Source: a virus | IMG/VR virus record: IMGVR_UViG_3300042878_001826 | Coordinates: 32,001 to 96,000 of that record | DNA: 64,000 nucleotides | Direction: 5' to 3' (one strand) | In this document: positions 8,001 to 60,311 of the stretch, in pieces | Position numbering within the stretch: position 1 is the stretch's first letter | Layout: each line of letters begins with the position of its first letter | Notes under the pieces: generated by a model | Databases searched by the model: none | What the model was told of the DNA's origin: nothing | What the model saw: the letters and a program-made list of their open reading frames with translations, nothing else | Program-made: the position numbers and the translations under genes

Positions 8001-8525
8001 ATGGTTCCAAGAAGTCAGGATAGGAAAAGCATACTTGATCTGAAGAAGGATCCCGACTTCAGAAGCATGCTTGTCGACACGCTTTGTCAAGGAATAAGAC
8101 TTACTTCTGATTTCAGAGATATAGTAGACTATGTAATCGATAATAAGCTACACCTTTTTGAAACTGATGACTTCTCAGGCTCTTTCTACCCTGAAGATGA
8201 CGATACACTTGATTTAGTATTTCCTGCAATCAGGAGAGTCTGGGGAAAGGTGTTCGTTGATCCTCCAAAAATACTTAAAGACAAGAAGCTGGAATTGTTC
8301 CAGCTTCTTTTCGATATTGATGACTTTGTTGATTATTTGATTGAAATAATGCCTAAGGTCAAAACTTCTTTGATAGAATTTGATAAGTTAGATAGAACCG
8401 CAGAAACTTTGGTTCTAATCGTCGATAACTATATTGCAGGAATCTTAGAGTCAACTCGTAATAGAGACGATATACAAATGGAAATAAGGGATTTAAGAAT
8501 AAGTAAAACTTTGAAGAAATGGTAA
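8001..8525 (+). CDS. Hypothetical protein with C-terminal RDLRISKTL motif
   Basis: Operonic ORF carrying the shared C-terminal motif. Confidence 0.7.
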   Translation: MVPRSQDRKSILDLKKDPDFRSMLVDTLCQGIRLTSDFRDIVDYVIDNKLHLFETDDFSGSFYPEDDDTLDLVFPAIRRVWGKVFVDPPKILKDKKLELFQLLFDIDDFVDYLIEIMPKVKTSLIEFDKLDRTAETLVLIVDNYIAGILESTRNRDDIQMEIRDLRISKTLKKW

Positions 8526-8863
8526 GTTGGTATATAAAATGTAAAGGGTTTAAGAGTCAACAATATTTGAAGAAAGTAGAAGAGACTGTCGAACCATTTA
8601 TGGAATACTTTATAGGTAGAATCTCAGATATTGAAGAATATGACATCGACAAGATAGAAGAACTTTACAAAGAGATATTCGACGAACTACCAGTTATGAG
8701 ACTTCGTACAAATAAGGACTATAACTATTCTCCACAATCAAAGGAAATAGAAATATGGTTAGAATACAACAAAGAAACTGATATCATCTTTGTCGACCCT
8801 AAGAAGTCGATAAGAAGAGAGATACAACTAAACAACTTATTTAAGAATGATGAAAAAATATGA
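8519..8863 (+). CDS. Hypothetical protein with C-terminal RREIQLNNLF motif
   Basis: Operonic ORF carrying the shared C-terminal motif. Confidence 0.7.
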   Translation: MVSWYIKCKGFKSQQYLKKVEETVEPFMEYFIGRISDIEEYDIDKIEELYKEIFDELPVMRLRTNKDYNYSPQSKEIEIWLEYNKETDIIFVDPKKSIRREIQLNNLFKNDEKI

Positions 8864-9137
8864 TGACTTCAAAAAGGATAAAGAAGCTCTTTATCTTACG
8901 AAAGAAGAGATGACTACGGTCAAATGGACCAAATACGTTATCGTGGTACCCACAGAGGAAGACCGTAATGAACTTATGGAAGCATTTGAACACATTCACT
9001 ACTCTGACATAGATACAGACAACATAGCGGTCAACCAGCTTGCTCACGAGTATCTGGATGATGATAGAGAACCAGGAACCTACAACAATATAGTGGTAGA
9101 TCCGGCGGCCTATGAAAAACTAAGAGTAAAGAGATGA
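8847..9137 (+). CDS. Hypothetical protein
   Basis: Coupled ORF. Confidence 0.65.
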   Translation: MMKKYDDFKKDKEALYLTKEEMTTVKWTKYVIVVPTEEDRNELMEAFEHIHYSDIDTDNIAVNQLAHEYLDDDREPGTYNNIVVDPAAYEKLRVKR

Positions 9138-9373
9138 TTAGTAGAACTTATACTATAGATGTTGGTAAAATGAAACCATCTAAAAAGAAATGGTGGCAAA
9201 TCTGGAGAAAGAATGGAGATTCTGCTGAAGAAATCTTGAAAGATTTAGTTTCAATCTATTCCGAAAATATCAATTTCAAATCTTTTGAGAGAAAGAACTC
9301 TATACACAGAATATATAATATTGAACCAATACCATTAGATTTTAAAAAAGATTATTGGTTCCCTAACAGATAA
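9134..9373 (+). CDS. Hypothetical protein
   Basis: Coupled ORF; KKKWWQIW and RKNSIHRIY segments. Confidence 0.6.
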
Positions 9374-9389
9374 AAAAACAATACAATAT

Positions 9390-10460
9390 ATGAGCAAAGA
9401 CTACTACAGCGTTTTAGGAGTAGATAGAAACGCAACAGAAGAACAGATCAAAAAAGCTTATCGAAAGAAAGCGATGGAGTTCCATCCTGATAAAAATCCA
9501 GGAAACCCAGCGGCTGAAACAAAATTCAAAGAAGCTGCAGAAGCTTATGATGTACTTTCAGATGCTGGTAAAAAGTCTAACTACGACAACTTTGGTTCTG
9601 CAACAGGAAATCCTTTTGGTGGAGGTGGTGGAAACCCATTCGGTGGTGGAGGTCATGGATTCAATATGGATGACATCTTTTCACAATTTGGTGACATATT
9701 TGGAAACAGAGGTGGTGGAAAACAACAAAGAAGAAAAGCAAGAGGTTCTGATTTAAGAATCAAAGTTGTTTTGAATATTGATGAGATATTGAAAGGATGT
9801 ACTAAGAAACTTAGGTATAAAAGACATACTAAATGTGATCCTTGTGCTGGAAAAGGTGGTACTGACGTAAGAGAATGTTTGGCTTGTAAAGGAAGTGGAC
9901 ATAGAACGGTTGTTCAGAATACACCATTTGGACAAATGAGAACAGAAACAACTTGTCCTGATTGTAGAGGTACAGGAAGTATAATAAGAAATCAATGTAA
10001 TCATTGTCATGGAGAAGGAACTCAACTTAAAGAACAGGTTATTGATGTTGAAGTACCTGTAGGAGTATCAAACGGAATGCAACTTAATATGCAAGGGTAT
10101 GGTAATGATGTAAGAGATGGTGTTGCTGGCGACCTACATATATTAGTGGAAGAAGCACAAGACTTTTCATATAAGAGAGAAGGAAACAATTTGATAGTAG
10201 AAAAGACTATATCTGTTATAGATGCAATCTGTGGTGCACACGTCAAAGTATCTACTCCGCACGGAGAGCAATCTCTGTATATCGAACCAGGAACTGAACA
10301 TGGTAGAACTGCTAGAATAGGTGGTAAAGGTATTCCAGATATACATTATGGATTGGGAGATTTGTTTATAAAAATATCAATAAAGATTCCTAGAAACATA
10401 GATATGGACGAGCAACACATACTCGAAAAACTAAAAGATTCCAAAAACTTTCAAGTATAA
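9390..10460 (+). CDS. dnaJ: Class A J-domain chaperone DnaJ
   Basis: J domain with HPD, G/F-rich linker, four CxxCxGxG repeats, C-terminal domain. Confidence 0.97.
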
Positions 10461-10493
10461 GAAAAGCCACTCATTTGAGTGGCTTTCTTTTTT
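10461..10493. terminator. Bidirectional intrinsic terminator
   Basis: AAAGCCACTCA-TT-TGAGTGGCTTT followed by a T-tract, between convergent genes. Confidence 0.85.
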
Positions 10494-10668: not shown

Positions 10669-10745
10669 AGTTTCTCTGTTGTTTGTTGTTTGTCTTACAA
10701 AGATACGGACAATATTCTAATATCCAAAAATATTTTATACATTTT

Positions 10746-13700
10746 CTATTCATACAAGCTACTTGTACGATAAATATTTCGATGAAAGACAAGACATCCT
10801 GTTGGATACGTCGCATATGTTGTCGGGCTCGTCGAGTATGTAGTTCCTACAGTTAGTAGAGTTGTACTATAGAGAGTATTATTAAAACCGTTGATGAAAT
10901 TTGAACAACGAATAGCACCACTATTTGAGCTGTAGTATGTTCCGGTTGCTGTAGTCAAGAATGCCCTTAGATAAACAAAGTGAATTGGGTATGGTGCACC
11001 GACAACACCATCCCAAGGAGTTCCTGGTAAAATACCCATAATATTTGGCGTTGTCGTCTTACCTGAGATGGCATATGCAACCGAATCGGATAAGGTAGGT
11101 GTAGTCGATGTAGTCGACCAACAAACTCCAGAGCTCAATACGGTTTCTCCACCATATATCGAATTAGAAAACGTCATAGAAACATATCCCTGTGGTGCAA
11201 CATAAGCAGAATTTACTGCCTGTTCTGCCATTTGATATACCAACGGTAAAGCGTCAATAGATATCGAAGTACGTCTCCAGTCTCTATTATAATCGAAGTC
11301 CCACGGACTATATGTTGCCGGCTCCCATTCTCGTTCCCACCAACCACGTCTCCACCAAGGAGTATATTCTTCATCCCATGTCGTATCCCAGACCCCTACA
11401 TCTACTGCGTTAGTTGCCAACCTGAAGGCCCTTACTTTTTTGATGCCTGACTTACCATCCGACTTTTGATATCCTACAGATGGAACTGATGCCTCTGAGC
11501 ACGAGTAATAGTATGCAGTGGCTGCGTTTATTTCTGTTGATGTCCAATATGAACCTGCCAATGAATCAGATCCGAGTACAGTATTTACTATACTCCCAGC
11601 GTTGAATGCTTGATTCATTTCAAATACAGATGGTAAATACCAATCTGTGAATCCACCACCAGTATAGTTGTCACATAACTTAGCTGCAGAAGTTGTGTGT
11701 CCACTTTGTCCGATTATACTTGTCTGATTATTTTCTCCTTTGAAGTCCGAAGTTGCATTAGAAACCACTGACGTTATGTTTGACCATTGAGAATTTGCAC
11801 TTACATCTTCTAAAGACATTATAAGATAGTTGAATATAGTTTTAGGATAATACCACATTGCGACTATTATTCCACCACCATATAGCTCCCCGATATATCT
11901 ATAGTTGTTAGGTCTTGAAAAAATTGAGTTTTTGTCTACCCATTTTGAATATCCAACGGAGTTTAGTTTTAATATCTTTTCGTTACTAATCTCACCTATT
12001 TCAAGTGATAAGTTTTGTGATATTGAGAATGTGGGATTTCCATTTATCTCATGAGAGAAGAATTTGTTTGCATCATTAAAGTTGTCAAATCTGAATTTAT
12101 CAGTATCGTAATTATTTCTTACTTCACCATAACTAATAGATTTGTTATATATCTGAATACTTGCCAATGATCCTTTTAGAGGATTTACTGCAGTTGAATA
12201 TCTACCGACAATAACATCACCGGCAATACCTGTTGCCATTGTGAATGTGGATGGAGCAGAAGAGTTTATATCAAGTACGGAATCTATATATGTCTTTAGA
12301 TTTTTAGTTGTATTGTCAAAAGTAGCACAGACATGAGTCCATTTGTTCAAATCTATACCTTTTGTACCAACCTTATCAACAATAACAGTTAAGTTTTTTA
12401 GTCTTACTCCTATTGTACTCAAAGTAGTTCCTAAAACTTGATAAACTTCCCATGGACCACTGGTTGCACCGGTTGTATTCCATCTTACTATTATCGTGGA
12501 ATTTCTTCTTTCTGTTAATTTTACCCAAAAAGAAACCGAAAGGTTCTGAATAGCTTGAAAGTCGACAGAGTTTGCCCATGCTAAATATGGATTTGTAGCA
12601 ATAGTTCCTGGAAAGATTAGTTCTTTTCCATTGTATAAAGTGTTTGTTCTTTGAACTGCAGGTATTGTTGTAGTACCTGAGATAGTAAGAGTTGCGCTTC
12701 TCACATTACCACTTAGGTCGGTAACCGTTCCACTTATTGTTCCATCACCAGAATAAGAGTTCGTATTGTCGAAGTCTATACTTGTAAAGATATTGTTGTC
12801 TAATAACTTAGGTAGAATCTCATATCTTTTCTTCTCTACGCTGTAGTTCTTCATTATTTCGTCTTTTGTAAGTGCTCTATTATAAATTCTAAACACAGAC
12901 ATATCCATTGGCATTATATAATTAAGGGCTGCTCTGAAACCACCAATTCTTCCTTGACCAGAATTGAAGTTTGCAGTGGTGGCACTTGGTGTTGATGTAG
13001 GAAACTGTTGAGAAAGTATCTGCTCGTTTCCATTTATATAAATCTTATTGTTTGATAAAATATTTGGAGCAGTTCCAAGGGCTGCCCCTGTCTTCATCTC
13101 AAAAACATAATGATTCCAGTTATCAACCAGATTAAGTTTAGCTACTTGAGTAGTCGATATTCCATATAAATCTGAACTATTTGTATTGAATCCTAAATGT
13201 CCGCTCGCGCAATATACATCATATTGATCCCAACCAAATATCATTTTTCCACTATATGCAGGTTTTAGTCTTACCCAAGCTTCTACAGTTACGGTAGTCG
13301 TGTTTCCAACGGTTGTCTGAAAATCTACATAGGAATTCCCATTAAATCTAATGAATCCGCTCTCACTTGGTAAGTATACCGGCCCTGTAGGTGGAGTTCC
13401 ACCAACATTTGTTCTTACATAGATGTTATCTACGCTAGGTCCGGATTTGGTTACCGAATCGACATAACTTGCATTTGGTGCTGTTATCTTTATGGATATG
13501 TTCTTTCCACTGAATTGACTCAATTGTATGTGCACTGATGCACCAGTACCACTATTGTTGTTTCCAACGGTATTTGTTATTTGGGTTAGTAGAAAGTATG
13601 CTCCAGGTGTTCCTCCCGAATTGATAGAGACATATACGTTTACAGTAGCACTTACAGTGCTTTTGACGGTACTTTGGTCGAGAGTATCGAATTGTAGGTA

Positions 13701-15824
13701 AGCATATGATGACCCTACTGCGAAATAGTTTGAAACCAAAGATGATTCTCCGGTATTGTTGTATAAAGTTGGAGTAGTCGTTCCGGTTATTTTTGTAAAA
13801 CCCCAAGCACCGACTAACCTATAAGCCAAGCTATCTAAGTTACCTCCAGTGTTTAGATCTGCAAGTATATTTGTAATAGTTCCTCCTGATACCGAATTAG
13901 GGAAAGCGGATAGATTGAACAAATATGATGAATTCAATCCACCATTAACCAAATCTTTCCATTTGGTATATACTCCTAGGTTTAGATAGTCTACATCAGA
14001 GAAAGACTTTTTGATTGTAGAATCTAGATTCATTATCAATCCGTCACCTGTATAGACAGACTCTTTTCTTACTGCTCTTACTCTTCCAAAGCTTGATTTG
14101 TTTTTAAAATAGTAATCAGCACCATTAGGAGTACCGGCAAAAGAATTAAAAGACATTGCAGCATTTGTGGAATTTGCTCCTCCAGATCCTGGTGGTCGAA
14201 AATATTCCGTTGATGTCCAATAATCTTTGATTAGGAAATTAAGACTATCATCCTTTAAAACTTTATTTATTATAGCTGCATTATTGAAGACTTGGTTTAG
14301 TTCGTAGTATGATGGTAGATACCAGTCATCATAACCAGAACCTCTATAATCAGCACAAACTTTTGCAGCACTATAGATTGTATTTAACGAGTTAGATTGT
14401 GCGATTATCACATCACTATTCAAATCTCCGTTATAAAGACTTTGTGCCAAAGCACCTACGGTTGTACCCTGTGCTGCACCTGCAGCCCATCTGATATCTT
14501 GTATATAGGTCAGAGGTTCATAGTTCAATCCTGTTCCTGTAGAGTCGAACGAAATATTTACCACCTCTTGTGCAGCAGGTACGTTCTGACCAACACCTGA
14601 TGTTATTGGAGTCGTTTCAGAACCGACATAGTCTACATATATTCTGAATACACCCATCGTTCCTTGTCCCTGATTGTATAGTATTCGGTAGTTTGCTGCA
14701 AGGTATTGAGCATTGGAAGACATCGCAGGATAATAAAAATCTACAGCAACCACACGAAAGACATTGACGACAGAAGTCGTAGTAGACTTTATTCTAAGCA
14801 ATCCTTTTTGTACAACATTTGAATAGGTATACCCACCAGGAATGGTAGTAAATGAACCAGCACCTGCCGCTTCATTTGGAACTAATCCAGATCCACCACC
14901 AGTTCCGTTTAAAGATAGGAAAAAGCCAGCCTGATCTACCAGATTTATATCTAAGTTGTGTATACATATAATAGCAACATTTTGAAGATTTCCACCACCA
15001 TATGGACCAGATCCATTTAAATCGTGATAGGTTAAGAATTTATTCGTTGAGGTGGATGTTCCAGGATTATCTAAAGTAGCATTAGTACCCATTTTGTATG
15101 GAATGGTTGTGATAGTTCCAATCGAGCCCGCACCATCTTCTGTAGTGATGTCCTCGTTCGATACGATAAGAACTTTTTCATCTTCTGCTTCTTTCCAAAC
15201 TGCCGCGACTATTCCTCCTCCATATTTCTCTCCTATGTAGTGACCAAATGAGAAAAGAGACTTTACTGGTTTCCAAGTAGCCAACCCTGAAGAATCGGAT
15301 GTCAATACTCTTTCAACACCCTCACTTGCATCTCTTATTTGTAAAGGATCGTAGAATCCTACCGTAGTATCTGATATATAGTATCCATGTGCATCGGATG
15401 CACCGTATGTAGATATAGAAAATTGTGCACCATACTTATTTACATTAGCGGCAAATATGTCGTAGTATCCAGAACAATATGCCCTAACATAGTAAGTAGT
15501 GTTTGGTAACAGAGTATCTATCTTCACACTATAGTCCCAATTTATTGAAGAAGCAGCGGCGCTATAAATTTCGGGTTTCATCAAAGAATCAATAACCTGT
15601 CCGGATATTGGTACTAAAGTATCAGTAGTGGTTGTATTTGAAATGGATTGTGCAGTTGTTATTGATATTGGTTGTGTACTATAAATAAAACCTAATCTTA
15701 TATTAGTAATTCCTGGTCCAAAAGAACTCGGAATAAAAAATCCTGTTCCTTTTGCGATTATCGAGCTATCTAATCTATTGGTTAATTCTATAGTTACTGA
15801 ACCTAATTGTGCTGATGTTGCCAT
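10746..15824 (-). CDS. Large adhesin/tail-fibre-like protein with two DUF1566 (Lcl/CLec-like) and two LamG-like domains
   Basis: Repeated YIGE(K/L)YGGGI, DWYLPS..E(L/M)NQ, YWTSTE, VRA(V/F)R; LamG-like W(N/T)H(Y/V) and (R/Q)IYN(R/K) motifs; S/T/G/N-rich. Confidence 0.8.
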   Translation of the reverse strand: MATSAQLGSVTIELTNRLDSSIIAKGTGFFIPSSFGPGITNIRLGFIYSTQPISITTAQSISNTTTTDTLVPISGQVIDSLMKPEIYSAAASSINWDYSVKIDTLLPNTTYYVRAYCSGYYDIFAANVNKYGAQFSISTYGASDAHGYYISDTTVGFYDPLQIRDASEGVERVLTSDSSGLATWKPVKSLFSFGHYIGEKYGGGIVAAVWKEAEDEKVLIVSNEDITTEDGAGSIGTITTIPYKMGTNATLDNPGTSTSTNKFLTYHDLNGSGPYGGGNLQNVAIICIHNLDINLVDQAGFFLSLNGTGGGSGLVPNEAAGAGSFTTIPGGYTYSNVVQKGLLRIKSTTTSVVNVFRVVAVDFYYPAMSSNAQYLAANYRILYNQGQGTMGVFRIYVDYVGSETTPITSGVGQNVPAAQEVVNISFDSTGTGLNYEPLTYIQDIRWAAGAAQGTTVGALAQSLYNGDLNSDVIIAQSNSLNTIYSAAKVCADYRGSGYDDWYLPSYYELNQVFNNAAIINKVLKDDSLNFLIKDYWTSTEYFRPPGSGGANSTNAAMSFNSFAGTPNGADYYFKNKSSFGRVRAVRKESVYTGDGLIMNLDSTIKKSFSDVDYLNLGVYTKWKDLVNGGLNSSYLFNLSAFPNSVSGGTITNILADLNTGGNLDSLAYRLVGAWGFTKITGTTTPTLYNNTGESSLVSNYFAVGSSYAYLQFDTLDQSTVKSTVSATVNVYVSINSGGTPGAYFLLTQITNTVGNNNSGTGASVHIQLSQFSGKNISIKITAPNASYVDSVTKSGPSVDNIYVRTNVGGTPPTGPVYLPSESGFIRFNGNSYVDFQTTVGNTTTVTVEAWVRLKPAYSGKMIFGWDQYDVYCASGHLGFNTNSSDLYGISTTQVAKLNLVDNWNHYVFEMKTGAALGTAPNILSNNKIYINGNEQILSQQFPTSTPSATTANFNSGQGRIGGFRAALNYIMPMDMSVFRIYNRALTKDEIMKNYSVEKKRYEILPKLLDNNIFTSIDFDNTNSYSGDGTISGTVTDLSGNVRSATLTISGTTTIPAVQRTNTLYNGKELIFPGTIATNPYLAWANSVDFQAIQNLSVSFWVKLTERRNSTIIVRWNTTGATSGPWEVYQVLGTTLSTIGVRLKNLTVIVDKVGTKGIDLNKWTHVCATFDNTTKNLKTYIDSVLDINSSAPSTFTMATGIAGDVIVGRYSTAVNPLKGSLASIQIYNKSISYGEVRNNYDTDKFRFDNFNDANKFFSHEINGNPTFSISQNLSLEIGEISNEKILKLNSVGYSKWVDKNSIFSRPNNYRYIGELYGGGIIVAMWYYPKTIFNYLIMSLEDVSANSQWSNITSVVSNATSDFKGENNQTSIIGQSGHTTSAAKLCDNYTGGGFTDWYLPSVFEMNQAFNAGSIVNTVLGSDSLAGSYWTSTEINAATAYYYSCSEASVPSVGYQKSDGKSGIKKVRAFRLATNAVDVGVWDTTWDEEYTPWWRRGWWEREWEPATYSPWDFDYNRDWRRTSISIDALPLVYQMAEQAVNSAYVAPQGYVSMTFSNSIYGGETVLSSGVCWSTTSTTPTLSDSVAYAISGKTTTPNIMGILPGTPWDGVVGAPYPIHFVYLRAFLTTATGTYYSSNSGAIRCSNFINGFNNTLYSTTLLTVGTTYSTSPTTYATYPTGCLVFHRNIYRTSSLYE

Positions 15825-15831: not shown

Positions 15832-17349
15832 TTAAGATTTATTTAGTATTTGACTTACGTTTGCCACAAATTCCTGTGAATAAAACGGTGCTCCTGATCC
15901 ATAATTGCTCGAAAGAAAGTTGAAATCAAGAACAACAACGATTGCACCTTTTGGTGCCAAAGACAAAGATCCGGTTTTCCAAACGACTGCGTGCCCTGTT
16001 AATGAATCTATTGGATTTTTTGTAATAGGAGTTCCTGTTCCTATCGAAGAAAATCTACCGATGGCTGCAAAAGTAACGGTATTTCTGTTGTTTGCGATAA
16101 GAAATTCACTTTCTATATTCAATGAATTGTTAATACTTTGATTGGAGGACTGTATGTTTCCACCACCGAGATTTGTTATGAAACTTGCCAAATCATTATT
16201 TCGTGGTGTATAGTTTTGTGCATTCTCACCTAATATGAAAAGACCACCACCCTGTTGAAGATATGTTGTGTATTTTGTGGCAGCCCCAGTAGGAACCAGT
16301 AATGTTTGCACAGCGGCACCACCCTCTTGGACGTTTATATCCCATATATGGTCGTATTGTGAAAGATTTGCAGGAATACTAGAATAACTAGTTATAACCG
16401 TAACTGTGTTACCAAGCGAAACCTCTGTTGCGGTTATATTAGCAACCATTGAAGTGGCAAAATATGGCGCTGGTTGATCATAAACTATCAATACCTTGCC
16501 GGTTTTGTTTCTATCCTGAACCCAAGTTATTCCGTTCCATCTCTTAACATCTTGTCGAAATGGTCTTGTAAACTTATAGGAGTTTTTAGAAGCTGTGGCG
16601 AACCTAACTCCACCAACAACACCCATATTTAGAAAGTGTGCACTTCCTGCATTATATTCCGTCGAAGTCCAATAGCCTGTTGTTAAAATTCCGGCAGATT
16701 CATTTGCATTTACGAATAGGTCCATATTCGAAAATGCTCCAGTTGAAATATTTTCAATAAGCGATAGTCCTTTATCAGTCGCATATTGAGAAATAACCCT
16801 ATCGACTATGGCCGCATTGTTTGCCAAACAGTTGAGCTCAAAGGTTGAAGGTAAATACCAATCACCATAAACACCCAGACCATAAAGATCCGCATTGATA
16901 TAGTTTGCACACTTTGAAGCAGCCTTGTCTGCAGGATTAGTTGTACCAAGAGGTAAACCTTGATTTATTATAGCTACACTATTGCTGGCACCAAAAGTAT
17001 TTGATCTTGCAGTAGCTCCAATCGCCAGATTTGCTATGTTAGACCATTGAAAATAAAAATACTCACCTTCACTATAAGGTTCACTATAGTTCTTTACAGA
17101 AGCGATTAGACATATTTCGTAAAGTGTCTCTCTCTGCTCTCTCCAAACCGCGACTACTATCCCACCACCATACAACTCTCCGATGAAATGATCCAATGGT
17201 TCTTCGTTACTACTATACTGATTAGGATTCTGCCAACTGGTATTACCATAGATGTCAGAAACGAGTATGTGTCCAGGATTGAAAGTCTTGTCGTCTATAA
17301 CCAAGTTTTGATTTATCCTAAAACTGGTTCTATTAAGTGAATGTCCCAT
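15832..17349 (-). CDS. DUF1566-domain virion/adhesin-like protein
   Basis: HFIGELYGGGIV, DWYLPSTFEL, YWTSTE, TRPFR; paralogous to the downstream gene; GAATATATA-N4-ATG upstream. Confidence 0.78.
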   Translation of the reverse strand: MGHSLNRTSFRINQNLVIDDKTFNPGHILVSDIYGNTSWQNPNQYSSNEEPLDHFIGELYGGGIVVAVWREQRETLYEICLIASVKNYSEPYSEGEYFYFQWSNIANLAIGATARSNTFGASNSVAIINQGLPLGTTNPADKAASKCANYINADLYGLGVYGDWYLPSTFELNCLANNAAIVDRVISQYATDKGLSLIENISTGAFSNMDLFVNANESAGILTTGYWTSTEYNAGSAHFLNMGVVGGVRFATASKNSYKFTRPFRQDVKRWNGITWVQDRNKTGKVLIVYDQPAPYFATSMVANITATEVSLGNTVTVITSYSSIPANLSQYDHIWDINVQEGGAAVQTLLVPTGAATKYTTYLQQGGGLFILGENAQNYTPRNNDLASFITNLGGGNIQSSNQSINNSLNIESEFLIANNRNTVTFAAIGRFSSIGTGTPITKNPIDSLTGHAVVWKTGSLSLAPKGAIVVVLDFNFLSSNYGSGAPFYSQEFVANVSQILNKS

Positions 17350-18970: not shown

Positions 18971-19222
18971 TCAATTGACTGGTTTTATTATTTCATCTAT
19001 TCTCATTTCTCTCCATTCGTCTAATGTAACGAAGTAGTTCGAAGCAGGCATGTATCTTTGTCCTTGATCGTTCATCACATCGACTATACTCATTCTATCA
19101 GGACCAAACTGATCCATAAGAACCGTATACTGCTTTCCGTAAGTAAATGTTTCCCAATTCTTTGTGATACAGACAATGATGTCGTCTCTTTTTAAGAGTT
19201 TAGTAGAAGATGTATTTTTCAT
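18971..19222 (-). CDS. Hypothetical protein with C-terminal REMRIDEII motif
   Basis: Coupled ORF carrying the shared C-terminal motif. Confidence 0.7.
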   Translation of the reverse strand: MKNTSSTKLLKRDDIIVCITKNWETFTYGKQYTVLMDQFGPDRMSIVDVMNDQGQRYMPASNYFVTLDEWREMRIDEIIKPVN

Positions 19223-31426: not shown

Positions 31427-32026
31427 ATGAGATTAAGTAGTCAGAATAGTCAGTTCATATTCAACCTTCCTGGTGATTTTATAAAACCAGAAACGATAAA
31501 CACGTATCAACCAATTTTGGAGAAGAACTGGGTTCAGTACGAAAATGTCATCGATTATCTAAATTCGACAATCAAATCTGTTAACTTTCCAGGTATGTCA
31601 TTTGAGATGCCGAAGCAGATTTTGATGAGAGGTAAGGAACGTCAGTTTAAGCCAGCAAAGAATGTTCAAGATATTACGACAACACACGATTTAACGATTA
31701 CTTTTAGATCTGTGGATTCCGATTTGAACTATTGGCTTATGTTTGATTTACTTTCTAAGCATTATATGGACGTAGAAAACTCGTTCTTGAACCCATTCAC
31801 AATAACGTGTGTGGATATACACAGAGATGCTTTGTATGTGATAAGATTCTATGAGATAATATTGAAGTCTTTGTCAGAAAACACATTTAACTATTCTTCA
31901 CAAAAAGTAACAAGTAAAGACTTCACTCTTGCCTTCCATTTTAACTTCTATGATATAGAGTTTATGTTAGACAAAAGTAAAGTTCTGGAACTTGGTGCGT
32001 TGCCACAGATTATTCAACGTCTTTAA
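31427..32026 (+). CDS. T4 gp3-like tail tube terminator / tube-fold protein
   Basis: IKSVNFPGMSF..DLTITFRSVDSDLNYWLMF resembles the gp3/gp19 tube family. Confidence 0.62.
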   Translation: MRLSSQNSQFIFNLPGDFIKPETINTYQPILEKNWVQYENVIDYLNSTIKSVNFPGMSFEMPKQILMRGKERQFKPAKNVQDITTTHDLTITFRSVDSDLNYWLMFDLLSKHYMDVENSFLNPFTITCVDIHRDALYVIRFYEIILKSLSENTFNYSSQKVTSKDFTLAFHFNFYDIEFMLDKSKVLELGALPQIIQRL

Positions 32027-32189
32027 TCTTTGGATAAAGCTTGTCGATAGAGTTCTTTCTTTTCCAAGATTTTGACAAGACGTAGTTTTTAAGGTTATTA
32101 CCTATTTCTAAATCTATGCTTTTAGAAATCTCTTGTGAAAGTATCTTCATAAGCTCGTCTTCTGCGTTTATACTATTTTTATTTTTCAT
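32010..32189 (-). CDS. Small hypothetical protein with RKNSIDKLY motif (likely start MKNKNS)
   Basis: Start overlaps the upstream gene stop (TAATG). Confidence 0.55.
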   Translation of the reverse strand: MKNKNSINAEDELMKILSQEISKSIDLEIGNNLKNYVLSKSWKRKNSIDKLYPKIKDVE

Positions 32190-44762: not shown

Positions 44763-45116
44763 TTATATTTTTATAATAATAAAAGTTGTTTTGTCGTCTA
44801 ATATATCATCTATGATTGTGTCTCTTCTATTTGATATGTTATGAGCGTCCAGATTCTCACATCTGATGCTCATAGATATTTTTTTACCAAAGTCTATGTC
44901 CATTGTTTTTATTCTACAATTCTGTGCCGCAAACTTTACGGTTGATATGTCAAAGCTTTTCCTTCCTTCGTATATATTTATAAATTCATCGTAGTATTTC
45001 GGATATGTACTTATGTCTAATGTAAGGTATAGAATAGCCCATTTCTCAAAAGAAAGTTGTACATCACATTCCTTTACATAGAATGTATCGTTTGCTATTT
45101 TTAACCAGTTGTTCAT
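44763..45116 (-). CDS. Hypothetical protein with C-terminal RRDTIIDDIL motif
   Basis: Coupled ORF carrying the shared C-terminal motif. Confidence 0.7.
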   Translation of the reverse strand: MNNWLKIANDTFYVKECDVQLSFEKWAILYLTLDISTYPKYYDEFINIYEGRKSFDISTVKFAAQNCRIKTMDIDFGKKISMSIRCENLDAHNISNRRDTIIDDILDDKTTFIIIKI

Positions 45117-48889: not shown

Positions 48890-49177
48890 CTATAAATCCG
48901 GTCCTTTCAATATTTCTTCTAATCTAATATCTCGATATTCGGCGATTGCTTTTTCAACGTTGATTGCTATATTTTTTGTGTACCACTTTCTCCATTTTGG
49001 ATTTATTCTGGAAATATATTCGACTTCATATCCTATTTGATGTCGACCCGAACCGACTATTGTTCCAGGATCGAGCAGTATTTCTGGATTTATGTCGTAG
49101 TGGGGGTTCATAGTCACTTCGTGCTGGTAGATGACTCTCTTCACCGCGGTGATTCTATTCAATATATCTTTTCCCAT
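48890..49177 (-). CDS. Hypothetical protein with C-terminal RDIRLEEIL motif
   Basis: Shared C-terminal motif. Confidence 0.68.
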   Translation of the reverse strand: MGKDILNRITAVKRVIYQHEVTMNPHYDINPEILLDPGTIVGSGRHQIGYEVEYISRINPKWRKWYTKNIAINVEKAIAEYRDIRLEEILKGPDL

Positions 49178-49838: not shown

Positions 49839-50158
49839 AATTTTCTTGTTTCTCCTACAAAAACCACATTGTGGTCTCTTACTAATCTTTCTAAGTGCAT
49901 GTTGTCCTTTGCATAAAGGTAGAACTTTCCTTCTTTATATGTCTCAACGAAATGATATTCTTCGTCAAATAACTCGACACCGTACAAACGATCTTCTTCA
50001 CCGATACCAACATCGGTATGGTCATTACGTTTAAGCCAAGTAAGTATTCCGGTTTGTTCTTCGTTGTTCATTATATCAATATACTTGAACGAATACATTT
50101 CGTCAAGATCATCTAATATCCAACTTTTTGAATCAACTTCAAAATATACTTTTTTCAT
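49835..50158 (-). CDS. Hypothetical protein
   Basis: Coupled ORF. Confidence 0.65.
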   Translation of the reverse strand: MKKVYFEVDSKSWILDDLDEMYSFKYIDIMNNEEQTGILTWLKRNDHTDVGIGEEDRLYGVELFDEEYHFVETYKEGKFYLYAKDNMHLERLVRDHNVVFVGETRKL

Positions 50159-50379
50159 ATTCCTATTTTGTTAAGTTTATAATCTCTTATTTCATCTAGA
50201 TTCAATTCTTTAAGATGTCTTTCATGAACAACTAAGTCGTATTCTTCATCATCGATAAAAAAGAATACTCTCATATAATATTTATTTTCAAAAGAAGCTT
50301 TATAGATACCACCGTATTTTAGAGGTTCGTAACAAAAATCCTTTATTTCTCTATCACTTGATATTACTTTAACATACAT
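50155..50379 (-). CDS. Hypothetical protein with C-terminal RDYKLNKI motif (likely start MYVKVI)
   Basis: Shared C-terminal motif. Confidence 0.65.
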   Translation of the reverse strand: MYVKVISSDREIKDFCYEPLKYGGIYKASFENKYYMRVFFFIDDEEYDLVVHERHLKELNLDEIRDYKLNKIGI

Positions 50380-52496: not shown

Positions 52497-52504
52497 ATTT
52501 AAAA

Positions 52505-55210
52505 ATGGGAGTAAGAGGAATATACTACGGAGGAATAGTCTTGGATGGCTTGGTATTCCATATCGACGCAGCAAAACAAGAGTCTTACGCGAAGAGAGGA
52601 CTTAGATACATGCAGAACGGAAACAGCAACCTGTTCATAGATTTCGCGGATACTTCTAAAAGTCCATCTACGGAAAATGCCACAGGTACTATAATAAATG
52701 GTGTTACTTTTAGTAACTTTGCACCATATCATCTATCAACCACACCATATTGGCACAATCCTGCAACGACTGCATGGAAAGATAGTGCAGGAATAGGAAC
52801 TTTCTACGGAAACTTAGAGTTTGATGGTGTAAATGACTATGTGAGTTTTGGATCGACACCTGAGATGGATGGAATAAAGGATATAACGGTATCTGCGTGG
52901 TTCTATGTAAATAAATTTAAAAGTGGTGCTGTTCCTGCCGGTGGAACAACAAGTATCATAGCGTCTCGATACAACGGTGTTAATGGATGGGCTCTTGGTT
53001 ATAATAATCAAGGAGTGGTTTATTTTGATGGAAGAGAAAGTGGTGCAGAATATCTGTCAGTAACTGCAAGTATTCCAGTAAAGTCTTCAAATAGTACTAC
53101 GAATGGTGGTTGGTACAACGCGGTTGGAACAAAACAAGGAAGTGTTTGGAGTATATACGTTGCAGAAACCAATAGGTATATTGTCGATGGAGATAGAAGT
53201 ATATATGTAGCAGCGTACCAACAATCTCTTTTAGGTACTCGAACAATGGGAGTTGGAACTACTACATTCACAACAAACAATCTATATTTAGGTTGTGTTG
53301 TATTTGGCACACCTACTTTACACATGGATGGAAGGTTGATGTCTTTGTCGGTATACAACAGAGCACTATCTCTTAGTGAGATAAACCAAAACTACGATTC
53401 TGTAACAAAGAGAATAATAAAAAATTCTGTTCCTGCAAGTCCTGAGTTCATAACAAAATGGAATACAAGCATTCCAATAATGGAAACAGCAACCGGTATT
53501 ATAGAGATACCTATAAATCCCTCATATACCTACAACTACACAGTCGACTGGGGAGATGGAATAACTACTACCGGACACACAGGAAATGCGACACATACAT
53601 ATGCTACGAATGGTATATACACAGTAAAGATAACCGGAACTTTTCCTGCGATTTTTACATCTAACAATATTTATAAAGTTAGGATGATTGAGGTGAGTCA
53701 ATGGGGAACAAATGTTTGGCAAACAATGGAGAGTGCATTCTATGAATGTTCAAATATGAACGTGACTGCAACGGATGCACCTAATCTTTCTGTAGTTACA
53801 AATATGTTTGCAATGTTTAGAGGATGTATATCCATGAATGGTAATATATCGAGCTGGGACGTATCTAATGTTACGAGAATGATTGATATGTTCTCTCAAG
53901 CAACTTCGTTTAATCAGCCACTTAATTCTTGGAATGTTTCGGCGGTTACTGAAATGCAAGGTATGTTTGCAGGAGCAACGTCTTTTAATATGCCACTTTA
54001 TTCTTGGAATACGATGTCAGTAATAAGTATGGCGGGTATGTTCGGAAATGCGGTATTATTTAATCAGAATATATCTGCTTGGAATACCTCGGCTGTTACT
54101 GAAATGTCTAGTATGTTCGATGGGGCGACCGATTTCAATAATGGTGGACAACCGATGCTTACTAGCGGAAATAGCTGGAATACATCGGCGGTTACAGATA
54201 TGAGTACCATGTTCTATCAGGCCAGTTCTTTCAATGCGAACATAAGCAATTGGAATACTGCAAATGTGACTAATATGGGTGCTATGTTCTATGAGGCAAG
54301 TGTTTTTAATTCGAACATAAGTAGTTGGAATACTGTAAATGTGACTGCAATGTATAGTATGTTCTTTAACGCATATTCCTTCAACAGACCAATCGGTTCT
54401 TGGAACACTGCAAATGTGACTGGTATGGGTAGTATGTTCTGGGGTGCAACATTGTTCAATCAGAATATATCCGCTTGGAATACCGCTGCGGTTGTAGATA
54501 TGAGTGGTATGTTCTTTAGTTCTGCATTCAACAATGGTGGACAGCCAATGCCTACTAACGGAAATAGCTGGAATACATCGTCGGTTCAATATATGAGCAA
54601 TATGTTCAATCAAGCTACAAACTTCAATCAAAATATAGCAACATGGAACACTTTGAGTGTTATTTCTATGAGACAGATGTTCTATGGTGCTTCTGCTTTC
54701 AACAATGGTGGACAACCGATGCCGACTAATGGAAATAGTTGGAATACCACGAATGTTACAGATATGTGGGGTATGTTCTCTTACACTACAAACTTTAATC
54801 AAAACATAGCAACATGGAATACTGCAAATGTTACTACTATGGGTCCTATGTTCAACGGTAGTATATTCAACAATGGAGGACAACCAATACCAAGAAATGG
54901 AAGTAGCTGGAACACCGCATTGGTTACGGATATGAACTCAATGTTCTATATGAACGACGCGTTCAACCAAAACATAGGAACTTGGAATGTTTCTAACGTA
55001 ACAGACTTCACAAATTTCATGTCGACAAAAACTCCGACTACGTTATCAACTGCGAATCTTGATGCTATATATATAGGATGGGTTAGTAGACCAGTTAAAC
55101 CAAATATCATCATCTCGTTTGGAACGGCGAATAGAACTTCCGCGAGTACAAGTGCAAGAAACGCATTAATAGTTGCTAATTTATGGACTATAACAGATGG
55201 TGGAATATAA
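52505..55210 (+). CDS. LamG + PKD + DUF285/BspA-like repeat surface/adhesin protein
   Basis: LamG N-terminal half, VDWGDG/HTYA PKD-like module, about 15 repeats of WNTxxVTxMxxMFxxAxxFNxxI. Confidence 0.88.
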   Translation: MGVRGIYYGGIVLDGLVFHIDAAKQESYAKRGLRYMQNGNSNLFIDFADTSKSPSTENATGTIINGVTFSNFAPYHLSTTPYWHNPATTAWKDSAGIGTFYGNLEFDGVNDYVSFGSTPEMDGIKDITVSAWFYVNKFKSGAVPAGGTTSIIASRYNGVNGWALGYNNQGVVYFDGRESGAEYLSVTASIPVKSSNSTTNGGWYNAVGTKQGSVWSIYVAETNRYIVDGDRSIYVAAYQQSLLGTRTMGVGTTTFTTNNLYLGCVVFGTPTLHMDGRLMSLSVYNRALSLSEINQNYDSVTKRIIKNSVPASPEFITKWNTSIPIMETATGIIEIPINPSYTYNYTVDWGDGITTTGHTGNATHTYATNGIYTVKITGTFPAIFTSNNIYKVRMIEVSQWGTNVWQTMESAFYECSNMNVTATDAPNLSVVTNMFAMFRGCISMNGNISSWDVSNVTRMIDMFSQATSFNQPLNSWNVSAVTEMQGMFAGATSFNMPLYSWNTMSVISMAGMFGNAVLFNQNISAWNTSAVTEMSSMFDGATDFNNGGQPMLTSGNSWNTSAVTDMSTMFYQASSFNANISNWNTANVTNMGAMFYEASVFNSNISSWNTVNVTAMYSMFFNAYSFNRPIGSWNTANVTGMGSMFWGATLFNQNISAWNTAAVVDMSGMFFSSAFNNGGQPMPTNGNSWNTSSVQYMSNMFNQATNFNQNIATWNTLSVISMRQMFYGASAFNNGGQPMPTNGNSWNTTNVTDMWGMFSYTTNFNQNIATWNTANVTTMGPMFNGSIFNNGGQPIPRNGSSWNTALVTDMNSMFYMNDAFNQNIGTWNVSNVTDFTNFMSTKTPTTLSTANLDAIYIGWVSRPVKPNIIISFGTANRTSASTSARNALIVANLWTITDGGI
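53760..55020 (+). repeat. Tandem coding repeats (about 25 aa DUF285 units, four carrying an NNGGQP insertion)
   Basis: Recurrent TGGAATAC..ATGTTC and AACAATGGTGGACA units. Confidence 0.85.
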
Positions 55211-55220
55211 TATATAGTAT

Positions 55221-57005: not shown

Positions 57006-57006
57006 G

Positions 57007-57035
57007 AAAAGTCGAAGAGAAATCTTCGACTTTTT
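57007..57035. terminator. Bidirectional intrinsic terminator
   Basis: AAAAGTCGAAGA-GAAA-TCTTCGACTTTT with a GNRA loop. Confidence 0.85.
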
Positions 57036-57038
57036 GAT

Positions 57039-57755
57039 TTATTTGGTGGCTACTAATACTTTTACTCTTGGAAACTTCGTGCTGAATATTCTATGGTATC
57101 CATCAATCACTCGCCATTTGTCTCCAGACTTCTTTACAATCCCTCTGATACCATTGTAGTTTTTATCAGAATAAAAATCTAAGTCTTTTTTCATTACTTT
57201 ATCTAAATGCTTTTCGGTACCGAATATGATGTCGTCTTTATCGATTGTAATAGATTCGTAGTTTGAATCTGTAATCTCTGGAAGAATCTTACCGTATTCT
57301 ACTTTCAAAAGATACTCAATCTTTTCTTTTAAACTAGGTAATGAAAATACAGTCATAAGCTCTTCTTCAATCTTGTCTGCAATAGATTCTTTTATTCTGA
57401 CATCGTTTACTTCTTGTCCATAGTACCCACCTTCAACTTCAATATCCCAGTTATCAGATTCCCATATTTTATAGGATCTAATAATTCTATCAATCGTATA
57501 GATGTCTATGTCTTTTCCAATACCATAAAGAACTTCGTTGATTGTGTTGTTTCTATTAGCAGCCTTTCCTTCTTCGAAAAATTCGTCGTATATTTTTTTG
57601 ACTATTAAAGATACATCAACAGACTCAACAGACTCATTATGAATACTACCACATCTACATATACCTTCTTCATCACACCCATAATTTTCACAATCATAAG
57701 TATAGCTATAGTCTACGTAAACACCGTTGTATTGAAATTTTATGTCTTTGAGCAT
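57039..57755 (-). CDS. ParB/Srx-like domain protein with an N-terminal Cys cluster
   Basis: C-terminal WRVIDGYHRI; CENYGC..ICRC. Confidence 0.62.
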   Translation of the reverse strand: MLKDIKFQYNGVYVDYSYTYDCENYGCDEEGICRCGSIHNESVESVDVSLIVKKIYDEFFEEGKAANRNNTINEVLYGIGKDIDIYTIDRIIRSYKIWESDNWDIEVEGGYYGQEVNDVRIKESIADKIEEELMTVFSLPSLKEKIEYLLKVEYGKILPEITDSNYESITIDKDDIIFGTEKHLDKVMKKDLDFYSDKNYNGIRGIVKKSGDKWRVIDGYHRIFSTKFPRVKVLVATK

Positions 57756-58461: not shown

Positions 58462-58462
58462 T

Positions 58463-58633
58463 TTAGTCTAAGTAAATGTCTAAGTATTCAGTGAAGCAAT
58501 AGTCTAATAGTACGCCTTGGTACATCAGCTGTTCGTATTCAAAAAGGTTATCACACTTTGACAATCTGTCGATGATGAAGTTCGCGTAGATTTGTCCAAA
58601 GTATTGAGCGATTTGTTTTAGTTTATTTTTCAT
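58463..58633 (-). CDS. Small hypothetical protein (likely start MKNKLK)
   Basis: ATGA overlap with the upstream gene. Confidence 0.55.
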   Translation of the reverse strand: MKNKLKQIAQYFGQIYANFIIDRLSKCDNLFEYEQLMYQGVLLDYCFTEYLDIYLD

Positions 58634-58884
58634 TGTTCGTTTTTTAAAAGTTCTTCTAATTGATTGATAGTTATTACAGACTCTACGTTTGTTAGGTTCT
58701 GCTCGCCTAGTGGTCTTGAAAGCTGAGATTTTAACCAAGTCTCTCTAGTACTATTCTTAATCTGCGTTGCCTTTTCAAAGGAAGTTGGATCGGAAGATAC
58801 AATGTCCCATTCTTTTTTCCCAAAGTTTTCGCTAAACGGATCTGTTTCGGTCCAGCTGCAGATAACAACATATATATTTTCCAT
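58630..58884 (-). CDS. Hypothetical protein
   Basis: TATCTTTG box at 58908..58901. Confidence 0.65.
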   Translation of the reverse strand: MENIYVVICSWTETDPFSENFGKKEWDIVSSDPTSFEKATQIKNSTRETWLKSQLSRPLGEQNLTNVESVITINQLEELLKNEQ

Positions 58885-58919
58885 AGTGTTTTATTTTAAA
58901 CAAAGATAAGGAATGTTTG

Positions 58920-59372
58920 CTAGTTTTGAAAGTTTCTAAGAAATTTCTTTTCGACTGGTCTCAAACCATCCATTCCGCACTGTCCGATTCTGTCCAGAAC
59001 GAGGTCCATGTCGAGGTTGTCGTAGATCCATTGGTCGAGCTTGGCCTTGTACGTGTTCCATCTGAAACGGTTTAAGGCGTTCACGAATGGCTTAAGCGAG
59101 CTTTCGACACAGAGCTTGTTGTCCAGAACTCTTTCTGAAACATCTTCTGTTGTGTGCTCGATAAGGTTGTTGTCCAATATCTTAGAATACTTCTCTATGT
59201 CTAACGGAGAGAATATAAGATAAAGAGTATAACGTTCCTTGTCGTTGAAGTCAAAGAACGAATCCGGGTTCATAGAAGATATAGCAAGTTTCTCTTGCTC
59301 GGAAAACCTTTCGTAGTCTTTGTCAAGCTCGAAAGAGGATTTGTTGAATTCTATTTTGTATACTCTGTTCAT
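58920..59372 (-). CDS. Hypothetical protein with DUF6576-like C-terminus
   Basis: MDLVLDRIGQCGMDGLRPVEKKFL resembles the ID.ILDKI..G..SL..EK.FL motif. Confidence 0.6.
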   Translation of the reverse strand: MNRVYKIEFNKSSFELDKDYERFSEQEKLAISSMNPDSFFDFNDKERYTLYLIFSPLDIEKYSKILDNNLIEHTTEDVSERVLDNKLCVESSLKPFVNALNRFRWNTYKAKLDQWIYDNLDMDLVLDRIGQCGMDGLRPVEKKFLRNFQN

Positions 59373-59411
59373 ATGGTATATATATTAAAAACATGTAACA
59401 TCATGATATAC

Positions 59412-60065
59412 TTATAACTCTATAATATCATTATGTTCTTGTCCTAAGATTTCGAAAGATTTCCAATCATATCCTGATTGTCTAGAATCTTTTGTCAATG
59501 CCACATAGTAAATAGTGCCACCTAAATCTGCTTTTATTACTTTTGGTATAAGGTGATTCTTTACTTTCTTAAACTTCTCACAAAGTTTTTCGTTTACAGC
59601 TTCTTCGATTATACCAAATACATGACGATCAAAAACAGACTTCATCTTCTCTAATCTTCTAAGCTCTTCACCAAGCTCGAATTGTTTTTGTTTGCTTAAA
59701 ATAAAGTTTATCTTTTCTTCTCTTGCGAGAACTTTTTCTTTAGAGAAAGTAACTCTGTCAGTAGAGTAAGCCCATCCAAAATGTTCGTCTTTTCTTATAG
59801 AGTATTTATAAGTAATTCCATCTCTATCAAAATAGACTTGCATAGATCCTTTTTCACCTGGATTCATACTATCAATAGGTTCGACTTCATTGATTATCTT
59901 ATCGATGAAATCTGAAAAGTCTTTTCTTCTCCTATCCGCTCTTTCTTTTGCACGAAGATAAAGTTCATGTAGCTCTTTGAAGCTCCAAGTCTTTGGATCT
60001 CTATCGAATTTACATTCAAACTCCCATCTTCTCAAAAAGTTTACTCCCAGGTTTTTATTGTACAT
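59412..60065 (-). CDS. Hypothetical protein with internal REEKINFIL motif
   Basis: 217 aa ORF. Confidence 0.7.
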   Translation of the reverse strand: MYNKNLGVNFLRRWEFECKFDRDPKTWSFKELHELYLRAKERADRRRKDFSDFIDKIINEVEPIDSMNPGEKGSMQVYFDRDGITYKYSIRKDEHFGWAYSTDRVTFSKEKVLAREEKINFILSKQKQFELGEELRRLEKMKSVFDRHVFGIIEEAVNEKLCEKFKKVKNHLIPKVIKADLGGTIYYVALTKDSRQSGYDWKSFEILGQEHNDIIEL

Positions 60066-60068
60066 TGC

Positions 60069-60311
60069 TTATTTTTTTAAAGTCTCGTCAATCTTGATGT
60101 CTCTCTCAATCGCTTCTTTATTTTGATGATACCAAATTCTAAAGTCACATCCGTAGTAGATGAACTCTTTGATAGTTTTACCATCTTCTTCATATTCAGC
60201 ACAACAAGTTTGACCAAACATGAATCTACTAAAACTTTCTTTCCAGATATCCGGAATTTCAGAATCTTTGATGTCTCTACCTTCTTCGTATATTTCTTTT
60301 AGATTTTTCAT
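60069..60311 (-). CDS. Hypothetical protein with C-terminal RDIKIDETL motif
   Basis: Tandem TAnnTTTG boxes at 60338..60331 and 60358..60351. Confidence 0.7.
   Translation of the reverse strand: MKNLKEIYEEGRDIKDSEIPDIWKESFSRFMFGQTCCAEYEEDGKTIKEFIYYGCDFRIWYHQNKEAIERDIKIDETLKK

Follow-up and report, generated by a model that had tools for sequence, protein, structure and literature searches.

A predicted C-terminal helix tag shared by small proteins of very large phages, a putative docking peptide for a common partner

Why do numerous small proteins of a phage that are otherwise unrelated in sequence end in nearly the same ten residues? This question is raised by a 150,251-bp contig of an IMG/VR virus (record IMGVR_UViG_3300042878_001826; approximately 33% G+C, 209 open reading frames (ORFs)), of which bases 32,001-96,000, a stretch of 64,000 nucleotides, are referred to here as the window. 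A preliminary description of the window had reported a short motif, R-[DEK]-x-x-[IL]-x-x-[IL]-[LI], at the C-termini of many small proteins, termed here the tag, and had suggested that it is an amphipathic helical docking peptide or degron that recruits its carriers to one hub. As detailed below, the C-terminal amphipathic helix is upheld by AlphaFold2 models and the tag is indeed spread over many body families; the single hub is the part that we can only infer.

The motif is strongly enriched at C-termini. When the regular expression of the preliminary description was counted in the last 20 residues of all proteins of the contig, 15 proteins matched, as compared to a mean of 0.13 and a maximum of 2 in 500 within-protein shuffles, and a looser expression matched 29 tails versus 0.85 in shuffles. 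Moreover, a pattern that retains only the register, that is, R with hydrophobic residues at +4 and +7, placed 8-13 residues before the C-terminal end, was found in 26 of the 116 small ORFs of this contig versus 1.7 expected. The form R-[DE]-x-[KR]-[LI]-x-x-[LI]-[LG]-[IK]-stop ends approximately 30 small proteins across the contig, with dense arrays beyond the window at 12.7-19.5 kb and 110.2-118.3 kb of the contig.

A degenerate DNA pattern for RDxKLxxLGI-stop yielded 90 matches on 71 stretches in IMG/VR, all 90 being in-frame ends of small ORFs; many of them lie on contigs of 170-483 kb, often several per contig. The same pattern was searched in GTDB genomes of 185,579 prokaryote species, with a single genome per species (596 Gb). 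Here, 26 matches were obtained, as many as chance would give, and none of them credibly ends an ORF; a bacterial counterpart of the tag was therefore rejected. Of the 955 distinct ORFs in the 71 viral loci, 228 (24%) are tagged. Even when no motif is presupposed, an R is found at position -10 from the C-terminal end in 29% of 789 small ORFs, which is a 7.5-fold excess, and no R signal is seen at this position in ORFs of at least 250 amino acids (aa). Correspondingly, the tag is carried by 38-48% of the ORFs of 60-130 aa versus 0 of 117 ORFs of at least 250 aa. In the megaphage record LR745206.1 it was found on 21 ORFs within 90 kb. Two control phages lack it: in the megaphage LR756511.1 we counted 2 of 158 small ORFs (2.8 expected), and in the AT-rich cultured Tenacibaculum phage pT24 0 of 42. 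An artefact of AT-rich composition is thus rejected both by the shuffles and by pT24. The tag is confined to phages and to proteins of less than 250 aa. The tag strings were not found in the literature, and the megaphage papers PMC7162821 and PMC9723777 do not contain the term 'C-terminal'; no published description of the motif was found.

All eleven motif strings listed in the preliminary description are present in the respective window ORFs. We scored them with a position-specific scoring matrix (PSSM) built from tags of other genomes only (the 71 IMG/VR loci); shuffled C-termini reach 7.2 bits at the 99.9th percentile and 12.0 bits at most. Six of the nine C-terminal examples hold with 9.6-28.1 bits, those at 44763..45116 and 32010..32189 are weak, and the one at 9134..9373 fails. 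One of the two internal examples, 59412..60065, is plausible with 12.5 bits, and the other, 57039..57755, is not supported. The proteins in question are as follows.

50155..50379, minus strand: 74-aa protein with the canonical tag RDYKLNKIGI-stop (tag codons 50158..50187; 28.1 bits)
48890..49177, minus strand: 95-aa protein, tag RDIRLEEILK followed by GPDL (tag codons 48905..48934; 21.0 bits)
8519..8863, plus strand: 114-aa protein of the grpE-dnaJ operon, tag REIQLNNLFK followed by NDEKI (tag codons 8816..8845; 19.7 bits)
18971..19222, minus strand: 83-aa SH3-like protein, tag REMRIDEIIK followed by PVN (tag codons 18983..19012; 15.6 bits)
60069..60311, minus strand: 80-aa protein, tag RDIKIDETLK followed by K (tag codons 60075..60104; 11.2 bits)
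8001..8525, plus strand: 174-aa protein directly 3' of grpE, tag RDLRISKTLK followed by KW (tag codons 8487..8516; 9.6 bits)
44763..45116, minus strand: 117-aa protein, weak variant RDTIIDDILD followed by 10 residues (tag codons 44796..44825; 5.4 bits)
32010..32189, minus strand: 59-aa mini-protein, basic variant RKNSIDKLY (tag codons 32031..32060; 3.8 bits)
9134..9373, plus strand: 79-aa protein of the grpE-dnaJ operon, claimed variant 18 residues before the end (codons 9290..9319)
59412..60065, minus strand: 217-aa protein, internal tag-like helix REEKINFILS at residues 115-124 (codons 59694..59723; 12.5 bits)

The tag of the 74-aa protein is retained in 47 metagenomic homologues. The 95-aa protein matched no Pfam or PHROG family. 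On a 312-kb contig (locus L025), the syntenic homologues of the 114-aa and the 174-aa protein end in RDIKLTKILA and, at 40% identity of the protein, in REKKLNFLTK, respectively. The gene of the weak 117-aa carrier adjoins the gene for a ClpC-like protein, just upstream of it, and its score lies between the 99th and the 99.9th percentile of shuffles. The 79-aa protein scores below the 99th percentile, and it is doubtful that it belongs to the basic RK-x-x-I-x-x-I-Y/F subtype, which occurs on 43-66-aa proteins of related contigs. The 217-aa protein may be a tagged module with an added C-terminal extension.

What kind of element is the tag? Its consensus starts with a hydrophobic residue (I/L/W/Y) at position -1, followed by R at position 1, D/E at 2, any residue at 3, K (sometimes Q or R) at 4, L/I at 5, N/K at 6, E/K/D/Q at 7, L/I at 8, G or L at 9 and I at 10, and then the stop codon. 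Of the 228 tags, 160 coincide in their end with the stop, and 212 end at most two residues from it. The AlphaFold2 model of the 74-aa protein (20 homologues; predicted local distance difference test (pLDDT) 90) is a small beta-barrel with a helix at residues 61-71 (LDEIRDYKLNK) and a non-helical I-G-I end, the helix and this cap being modelled at pLDDT 78-90. The 83-aa protein is likewise modelled as an SH3-like barrel with a terminal helix; here, the pLDDT of the tag is 65, falling to 44. R1, L5 and L8 lie on one face of the helix, which is amphipathic with L5, L8 and I10 on one side. We take the L-x-x-L-G-I end to be a Schellman-type helix cap. The models thus support an amphipathic, capped C-terminal alpha-helix of 10-14 residues.

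The codons of the tag permit the level of selection to be assigned. At positions 1-4, codon usage equals the genome background, Arg being encoded by AGA, CGT and CGA; the Leu codons of the tag are TTA, CTA, CTT and TTG. Positions 8-10 lean to A-ending codons (ATA 92% versus 46%, GGA 66% versus 38%), because the stop often overlaps the next start as ATA-TGA. The corresponding nucleotide pattern AGAGAT...GG is absent before other start codons, which lie in A-rich regions and include ATGA overlaps after untagged genes. Given the codon freedom at positions 1-4 and the absence of the pattern at other starts, selection therefore acts on the peptide, and a DNA-level element such as a promoter, a terminator, a recombination linker or a constraint of the start region was rejected. 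Hence, selection operates at the protein level, with a further influence of the next gene's start region on the end of the tag. In addition, the tag is more conserved than the body in eight of nine divergent families (0.60 versus 0.46 identity).

With the tag removed, the bodies of 252 tagged proteins fall into approximately 200 BLAST clusters, and the seemingly untagged members of these clusters almost all carry tag variants that the regular expression had missed. The earlier claim that the rest of the proteins is dissimilar holds for sequence, since BLASTP at E<0.01 links no tagged pair; the two bodies that were folded with AlphaFold2 are both small SH3-like barrels despite this dissimilarity. 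A particularly large body type is that of the SH3-like 'MKVVCI...LTxGKxY...FxTLEEWRE' family, to which the 83-aa protein 18971..19222 belongs. The family comprises 3,895 clusters (50% identity), and of the 130 small matches to its profile 123 end in the tag. By iterated hidden Markov model (HMM) searches, 45 of the 252 tagged bodies (18%) fall into this family. Both folded bodies are modelled as barrels that no sequence method connects, and barrel-type carriers probably make up more than 18%. Long proteins retrieved by the family profile repeat the barrel 3-12 times without the helix and match Pfam DUF6501 (73 bits) and DUF7244, both of the SH3 clan; the body therefore does not need the tag.

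Database comparisons of the carriers returned little. The 83-aa protein itself has no Pfam match at E<=1, and the best Foldseek match of its SH3-like AlphaFold2 fold has an E of only 1e-2. In PDB and BFVD, Foldseek retrieved nothing beyond generic SH3, KOW and Tudor matches (E >0.008), and the ESM Atlas gave no usable match. In approximately 40 tagged proteins no Pfam domain was found; Gp23 fragments were matched below the threshold, and a single PHROG, whose function is not known, was matched. The Gp23 fragments stem from two mini-proteins that match consecutive pieces of the model of this T4-type major capsid protein, both below the cut-off: the body of 32010..32189 matches positions 162-195 (E=5e-4), and a 66-aa protein of locus L001 (16161-16361, plus strand) with a basic tag variant at its end matches positions 220-262 (E ~1e-3). 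No full-length capsid gene is present on the 150,251-bp contig. The tagged proteins of this genome are 46 to 174 aa long. One carrier, a 79-aa protein of locus L001 (313-552, minus strand), begins with a hydrophobic, transmembrane-like stretch at residues ~8-30 and would be a membrane-anchored tag carrier.

The phages that carry the tag belong together. The contig (CheckV completeness 61%; 95% coding density in the standard code by a simple longest-ORF gene call) is closest to the uncultured megaphages LR745206.1 and LR756502.1 (634-642 kb), whose YeaG/PrkA-like protein is ~84% identical, followed by LR756504.1 with 65%. These megaphage genomes have been placed in the Mahaphage clade, for which Bacteroidetes hosts are predicted (PMC7162821; PMC9723777).

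In the sister lineage LR756504.1 (636 kb, 25% G+C) we observed a second dialect. This genome has no Gly-type tag, and in 100 kb 78 of its 224 small ORFs end in R-K-x-[K/I/R]-I-[E/N/D]-[N/E/D]-L-[L/I]-stop in the same register. Position 2 is K in 60% and D or E in at most 5% each, as compared to D/E in 64-76% and K in 3% of the tags of the 150,251-bp contig, of LR745206.1 and of the IMG/VR loci (the RD clade). Moreover, position 5 is I in 97%, position 9 lacks the Gly and the whole tag is shorter by one residue. The SH3-body profile, from which the tags had been removed, matched five proteins of LR756504.1, at least four of which have the K-type end. Such a concerted change on tens of proteins, read from the sequences, is what a common reader predicts.

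A further abundant ending of LR756504.1 (loci L114 and L115), [ND]-R-K-[NDS]-R-I-[DEN]-N-L-N-[IL]-(D/E), occurs in arrays of ~70-100-aa ORFs. This ending may correspond to the basic R-K-x-K-I-x-x-I-[FY] subtype found on 43-66-aa ORFs of the RD clade.

The upstream regions suggest when the tagged genes are expressed. The Bacteroidota-type (TAnnTTTG) -7 boxes TATCTTTG and TATATTTG are located 5-25 nucleotides before many units of small genes including tagged ones; both stand directly 5' of 60069..60311. A different sequence, TTTTTAATATATA, directly precedes genes whose products start with MK-x-L-K-x-F/Y...NE, an N-terminal capsid-type tag. Examples of upstream motif sites lie before window position 26172, L001:9547 and L002:5814. 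In a crude count, the promoters of tagged genes were 12 of the host type versus 3 of the phage type. From their sequence, the TTTTTAATATATA and TAnnTTTG classes may be late and early promoters, respectively, and the C-tagged genes are probably expressed early, because host-type boxes precede the tagged units. In agreement with the preliminary description, no tagged protein was seen to begin with the MK-x-L-K-x-F type of N-terminal tag.

We tentatively favour the reading that the tag is a docking or degron peptide recognised by one common, putative partner, although we hold it with somewhat less than even confidence. The tag sits on hundreds of sequence-unrelated small ORFan proteins (60-240 aa), probably expressed early, in one clade of very large phages with predicted Bacteroidota hosts. 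According to this reading, a single reader, of phage or host origin, would bind the face formed by R1, L5 and L8 and thereby treat all carriers alike. This handling could consist in their timed removal, or the small proteins could be adaptors, each delivering its own targets to the reader. It is the existence and the identity of this reader that we infer.

Several observations weigh against a common reader. First, the terminal helix could pack on the SH3-like barrel in both folded bodies, and in one of them the helix reaches pLDDT 90. Second, 33 of 50 K2 tags have an acidic partner for K2 at position 6, which suggests that part of the dialect switch is a flipped intra-helix salt bridge, explicable by helix stability alone. 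The switch could also be a founder effect of lineage-specific gene expansions and not the result of co-evolution with a reader, and the RD-clade genomes each mix LGI and ILK endings, so that no finer co-variation of tag and genome is seen. Third, small genes with an ATGA stop/start overlap are tagged in 51% versus 14-28% in other contexts, and some link of the tag to gene packing or translation is possible. As to the identity of a hub, the presence or absence of ClpC-like or DnaJ genes singles out none, because the near-complete tag-bearing genomes compared belong to one clade.

If the tag has a reader, which protein might it be? The preliminary description had noted that motif genes flank grpE, dnaJ and clpC. 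This is true, and the order GrpE-tag-tag-DnaJ is kept in a relative. The adjacency is weak evidence for a hub, since approximately one gene in eight is tagged. The chaperone genes of the window are as follows.

7461..8000, plus strand: GrpE
9390..10460, plus strand: full type-I DnaJ
42604..44730, minus strand: ClpC-type double-AAA+ protein (Pfam AAA, AAA_lid_9, UVR, AAA_2 and ClpB_D2-small)

The first two are part of an operon (6969..10460, plus strand) that comprises a 162-aa ORF, GrpE, the tagged 174-aa and 114-aa proteins, ORFs of 96 and 79 aa, and DnaJ, with several gene junctions overlapping or abutting. The relative is locus L025, where the order is kept at 35-40% identity and a 61-aa ORF with a basic tag variant follows DnaJ. 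In the ClpC-like protein, the middle domain is of the UVR type and residues 557-560 form a G-V-G-F ClpP-docking loop; by Pfam the protein has no Clp_N domain, in place of which there is an acidic low-complexity N-terminus. It is present in all six near-complete tag-bearing genomes at 69-74% identity and is among the best conserved proteins compared, and its counterpart in LR756504.1, which uses the other dialect, is 41% identical. The gene is absent from both tag-less controls (LR756511.1 and pT24) and also from a tag-rich 155-kb contig rated 83% complete. A full-length DnaJ was found in four of five near-complete tag-bearing genomes searched. This distribution of the ClpC-like protein fits ClpC as the reader and is explained equally well by shared ancestry.

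The leading putative candidate for the reader, and as such still an unlikely one, is the phage's N-domain-less ClpC-type unfoldase, which together with ClpP would grip more than 100 early ORFans per genome. The tagged proteins would then be destroyed on schedule, or they would serve as exchangeable adaptors through which host proteins reach the unfoldase and are unfolded or degraded. In this scenario, co-evolution of reader and tag would have produced at least two dialects, R-D/E...L-G-I and R-K...L-L. A mimicry of the ClpP-docking [LIV]-G-[FL] loop by the LGI end is unlikely, as endings without Gly (ILK, LLK) interchange with it within single families.

A 630-aa ORF (genome 30227..32119, minus strand), which reaches into the window at positions 1..119, ends in ...DTDFEEVK. 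Judged by its N-terminal sequence, it is presumably a phage DnaK. The end recalls the EEVD tail by which eukaryotic Hsp70 docks co-chaperones, and such a tail would be unusual in a bacterial-type DnaK.

The main rival to docking, which we regard as unlikely yet serious, dispenses with a common reader. It holds that the tag is an inherited, self-capping C-terminal helix that packs on or stabilises a small domain in one or a few very fast-evolving superfamilies expanded by tandem duplication, the shared motif and the dialects arising from common descent and founder effects. Such a history would account for two modelled bodies that are both SH3-like barrels with a helix though BLAST and HMM searches do not relate them, and for one body family that alone makes up the 3,895 clusters with 123 of 130 small matches tagged. 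It would also fit the tight, ATGA-coupled arrays, in which 43% of the tagged genes directly precede another tagged gene, the K2/E6 pairing as an intra-helix salt bridge and the confident helix of the 74-aa model. However, the SH3 body is repeated in long proteins without the helix, the SH3-like family is detectable in only 18% of the tagged bodies, and the carriers, with bodies of 46-174 aa, include a transmembrane-like protein and fragments resembling a capsid protein. Moreover, packing alone hardly explains an invariant R, D/E and K on unrelated bodies, nor a tag that is more conserved than its body, and in the 83-aa model the helix is of low confidence.

Compared with docking onto a common reader and with an inherited helix, the remaining readings are less likely. 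The tags might bind each other and thereby build mixed oligomers or a condensate-like body with no separate hub, which we consider improbable. An amphipathic helix with L5, L8 and I10 on one face would lend itself to this, mutual recognition would also give a concerted dialect switch, and the restriction to small proteins fits; but two to three turns are short for a stable coiled coil, no heptad continuity is seen upstream, and for an indiscriminate mixing of more than 100 proteins there is no known precedent. Slightly lower still we place the possibility that the motif serves translation, its last codons or the nascent peptide being shaped by the ATGA start of the next gene in a host without Shine-Dalgarno initiation. 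The excess of tags at ATGA overlaps, the exact coincidence of tag end and stop in 59 of 66 ATGA-coupled genes and the A-ending bias of positions 8-10 speak for such a role. Against it, positions 1-4 show no codon bias with R and L drawn from both codon families, the nucleotide pattern is missing from other start regions, ATGA overlaps after untagged genes among them, 14-28% of the small genes that are uncoupled or convergent are tagged and keep the motif, and large genes with overlapping starts are untagged. The least probable reading is that of a packaging signal by which small proteins are loaded into the virion and injected with the DNA: the size restriction and the carriers resembling head-protein fragments would suit it, but a separate N-terminal tag of the T4 capsid-targeting type, with a phage-type promoter motif, marks another, larger set of proteins, the host-type boxes at tagged units suggest early and not late expression, and in our judgement virion cargo would be far less than a fifth to a third of all small genes.

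Three further loci deserve mention. In locus L001 (15610-16161, plus strand), a gene for a NusG-like protein (Pfam NusG and KOW) is directly followed by three mini-genes of 51-66 aa with basic tag variants. On the minus strand of locus L002 (870-5644; genome 20870..25647) we observed a trio of genes that resembles PrkA/YeaG kinase, YeaH and SpoVR/YcgB, as indicated by PHROG matches, by tblastn matches annotated as YeaG or serine kinase and by a 'sporulation protein' PHROG. In the window, 10746..15824 (minus strand) encodes a 1,692-aa protein with Laminin_G_3 and Lcl_C domains, which shows internal paralogy to the product of the next gene, 15832..17349, and to that of 52505..55210; as judged by sequence, the three are probably a set of fibres or adhesins.

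The tag matters beyond this contig. Mahaphage megaphages encode hundreds of small genes without detectable relatives or function, and the tag, present on a fifth to a third of them, provides a single handle: it predicts ORFs of one functional class and can be used as a bait, with the two dialects as a built-in specificity control. If a reader exists, its clients would be among the largest sets known for one linear motif in any virus, and the reader would show how very large phages organise the takeover of the host. Even if its role were purely structural, the helix would define a very large undescribed family signature, with 3,895 clusters for one body type.

How does the tag compare with known systems? 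AAA+ proteases recognise the LAA tail of ssrA, the basic C-terminus of the MuA type and the XB peptide of SspB, which docks on the N-domain of ClpX. The likeness lies in a short peptide at the extreme C-terminus of unrelated proteins that addresses one machine, and the phage does encode a ClpC-type unfoldase with a VGF loop. An ssrA/MuA-type degron shares the C-terminal position; yet the tag is a predicted, capped helix with an invariant Arg and conserved D/E and K at helical spacing, unlike a non-polar, unstructured LAA-like or a basic A-I tail. Tethering of the SspB XB type to the phage ClpC-like protein is likewise disfavoured, as this protein lacks the Clp_N domain.

Sliding clamps bind QL[SD]LF or QLxLxL peptides (such as the C-terminal QLVLGL of Pol IV), the PIP box and, in the case of T4 gp45, the C-termini of its partners. 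These peptides are also short, mostly C-terminal and present on many proteins that share one hub, and K/Q-L-x-x-L-G-I superficially resembles QLVLGL. In the tag, however, the corresponding position is K in 58-84% and Q in 8-11%, the Leu spacing is one residue off (L-x-x-L and not L-x-L or L-x-x-FF), and R1 and D/E2 have no counterpart in clamp-binding peptides. In contrast to a list of replisome clients, there are more than 100 clients per genome here, all of them ORFans.

The T4 capsid targeting sequence is an N-terminal tag on internal proteins that is cleaved at L/I-x-E. Like the tag, it is a short terminal element that sorts unrelated phage proteins. The tag differs in being C-terminal and in following host-type -7 boxes, and it is the N-tagged genes that follow TTTTTAATATATA. 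A set of precursors akin to ribosomally synthesised and post-translationally modified peptides (RiPPs) does not fit either: the bodies of 60-240 aa are folded and conserved among homologues, and no modifying enzyme recurs beside the arrays.

Encapsulation peptides of microcompartments and cargo peptides of encapsulins are terminal amphipathic helices of ~10-18 residues on enzymes encoded beside the shell genes. They resemble the tag in being terminal amphipathic helices on diverse cargo; in contrast to them, none of ~40 tag carriers has a known domain, and no shell or compartment gene is known in these phages. DUF7244 and DUF6501 comprise standalone phage proteins of the SH3 clan, and the paper describing them does not mention a shared C-terminal helix (PMC13164509). 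Any likeness is limited to the body of the 18971..19222 family, whereas the tag occurs on many bodies outside that family.

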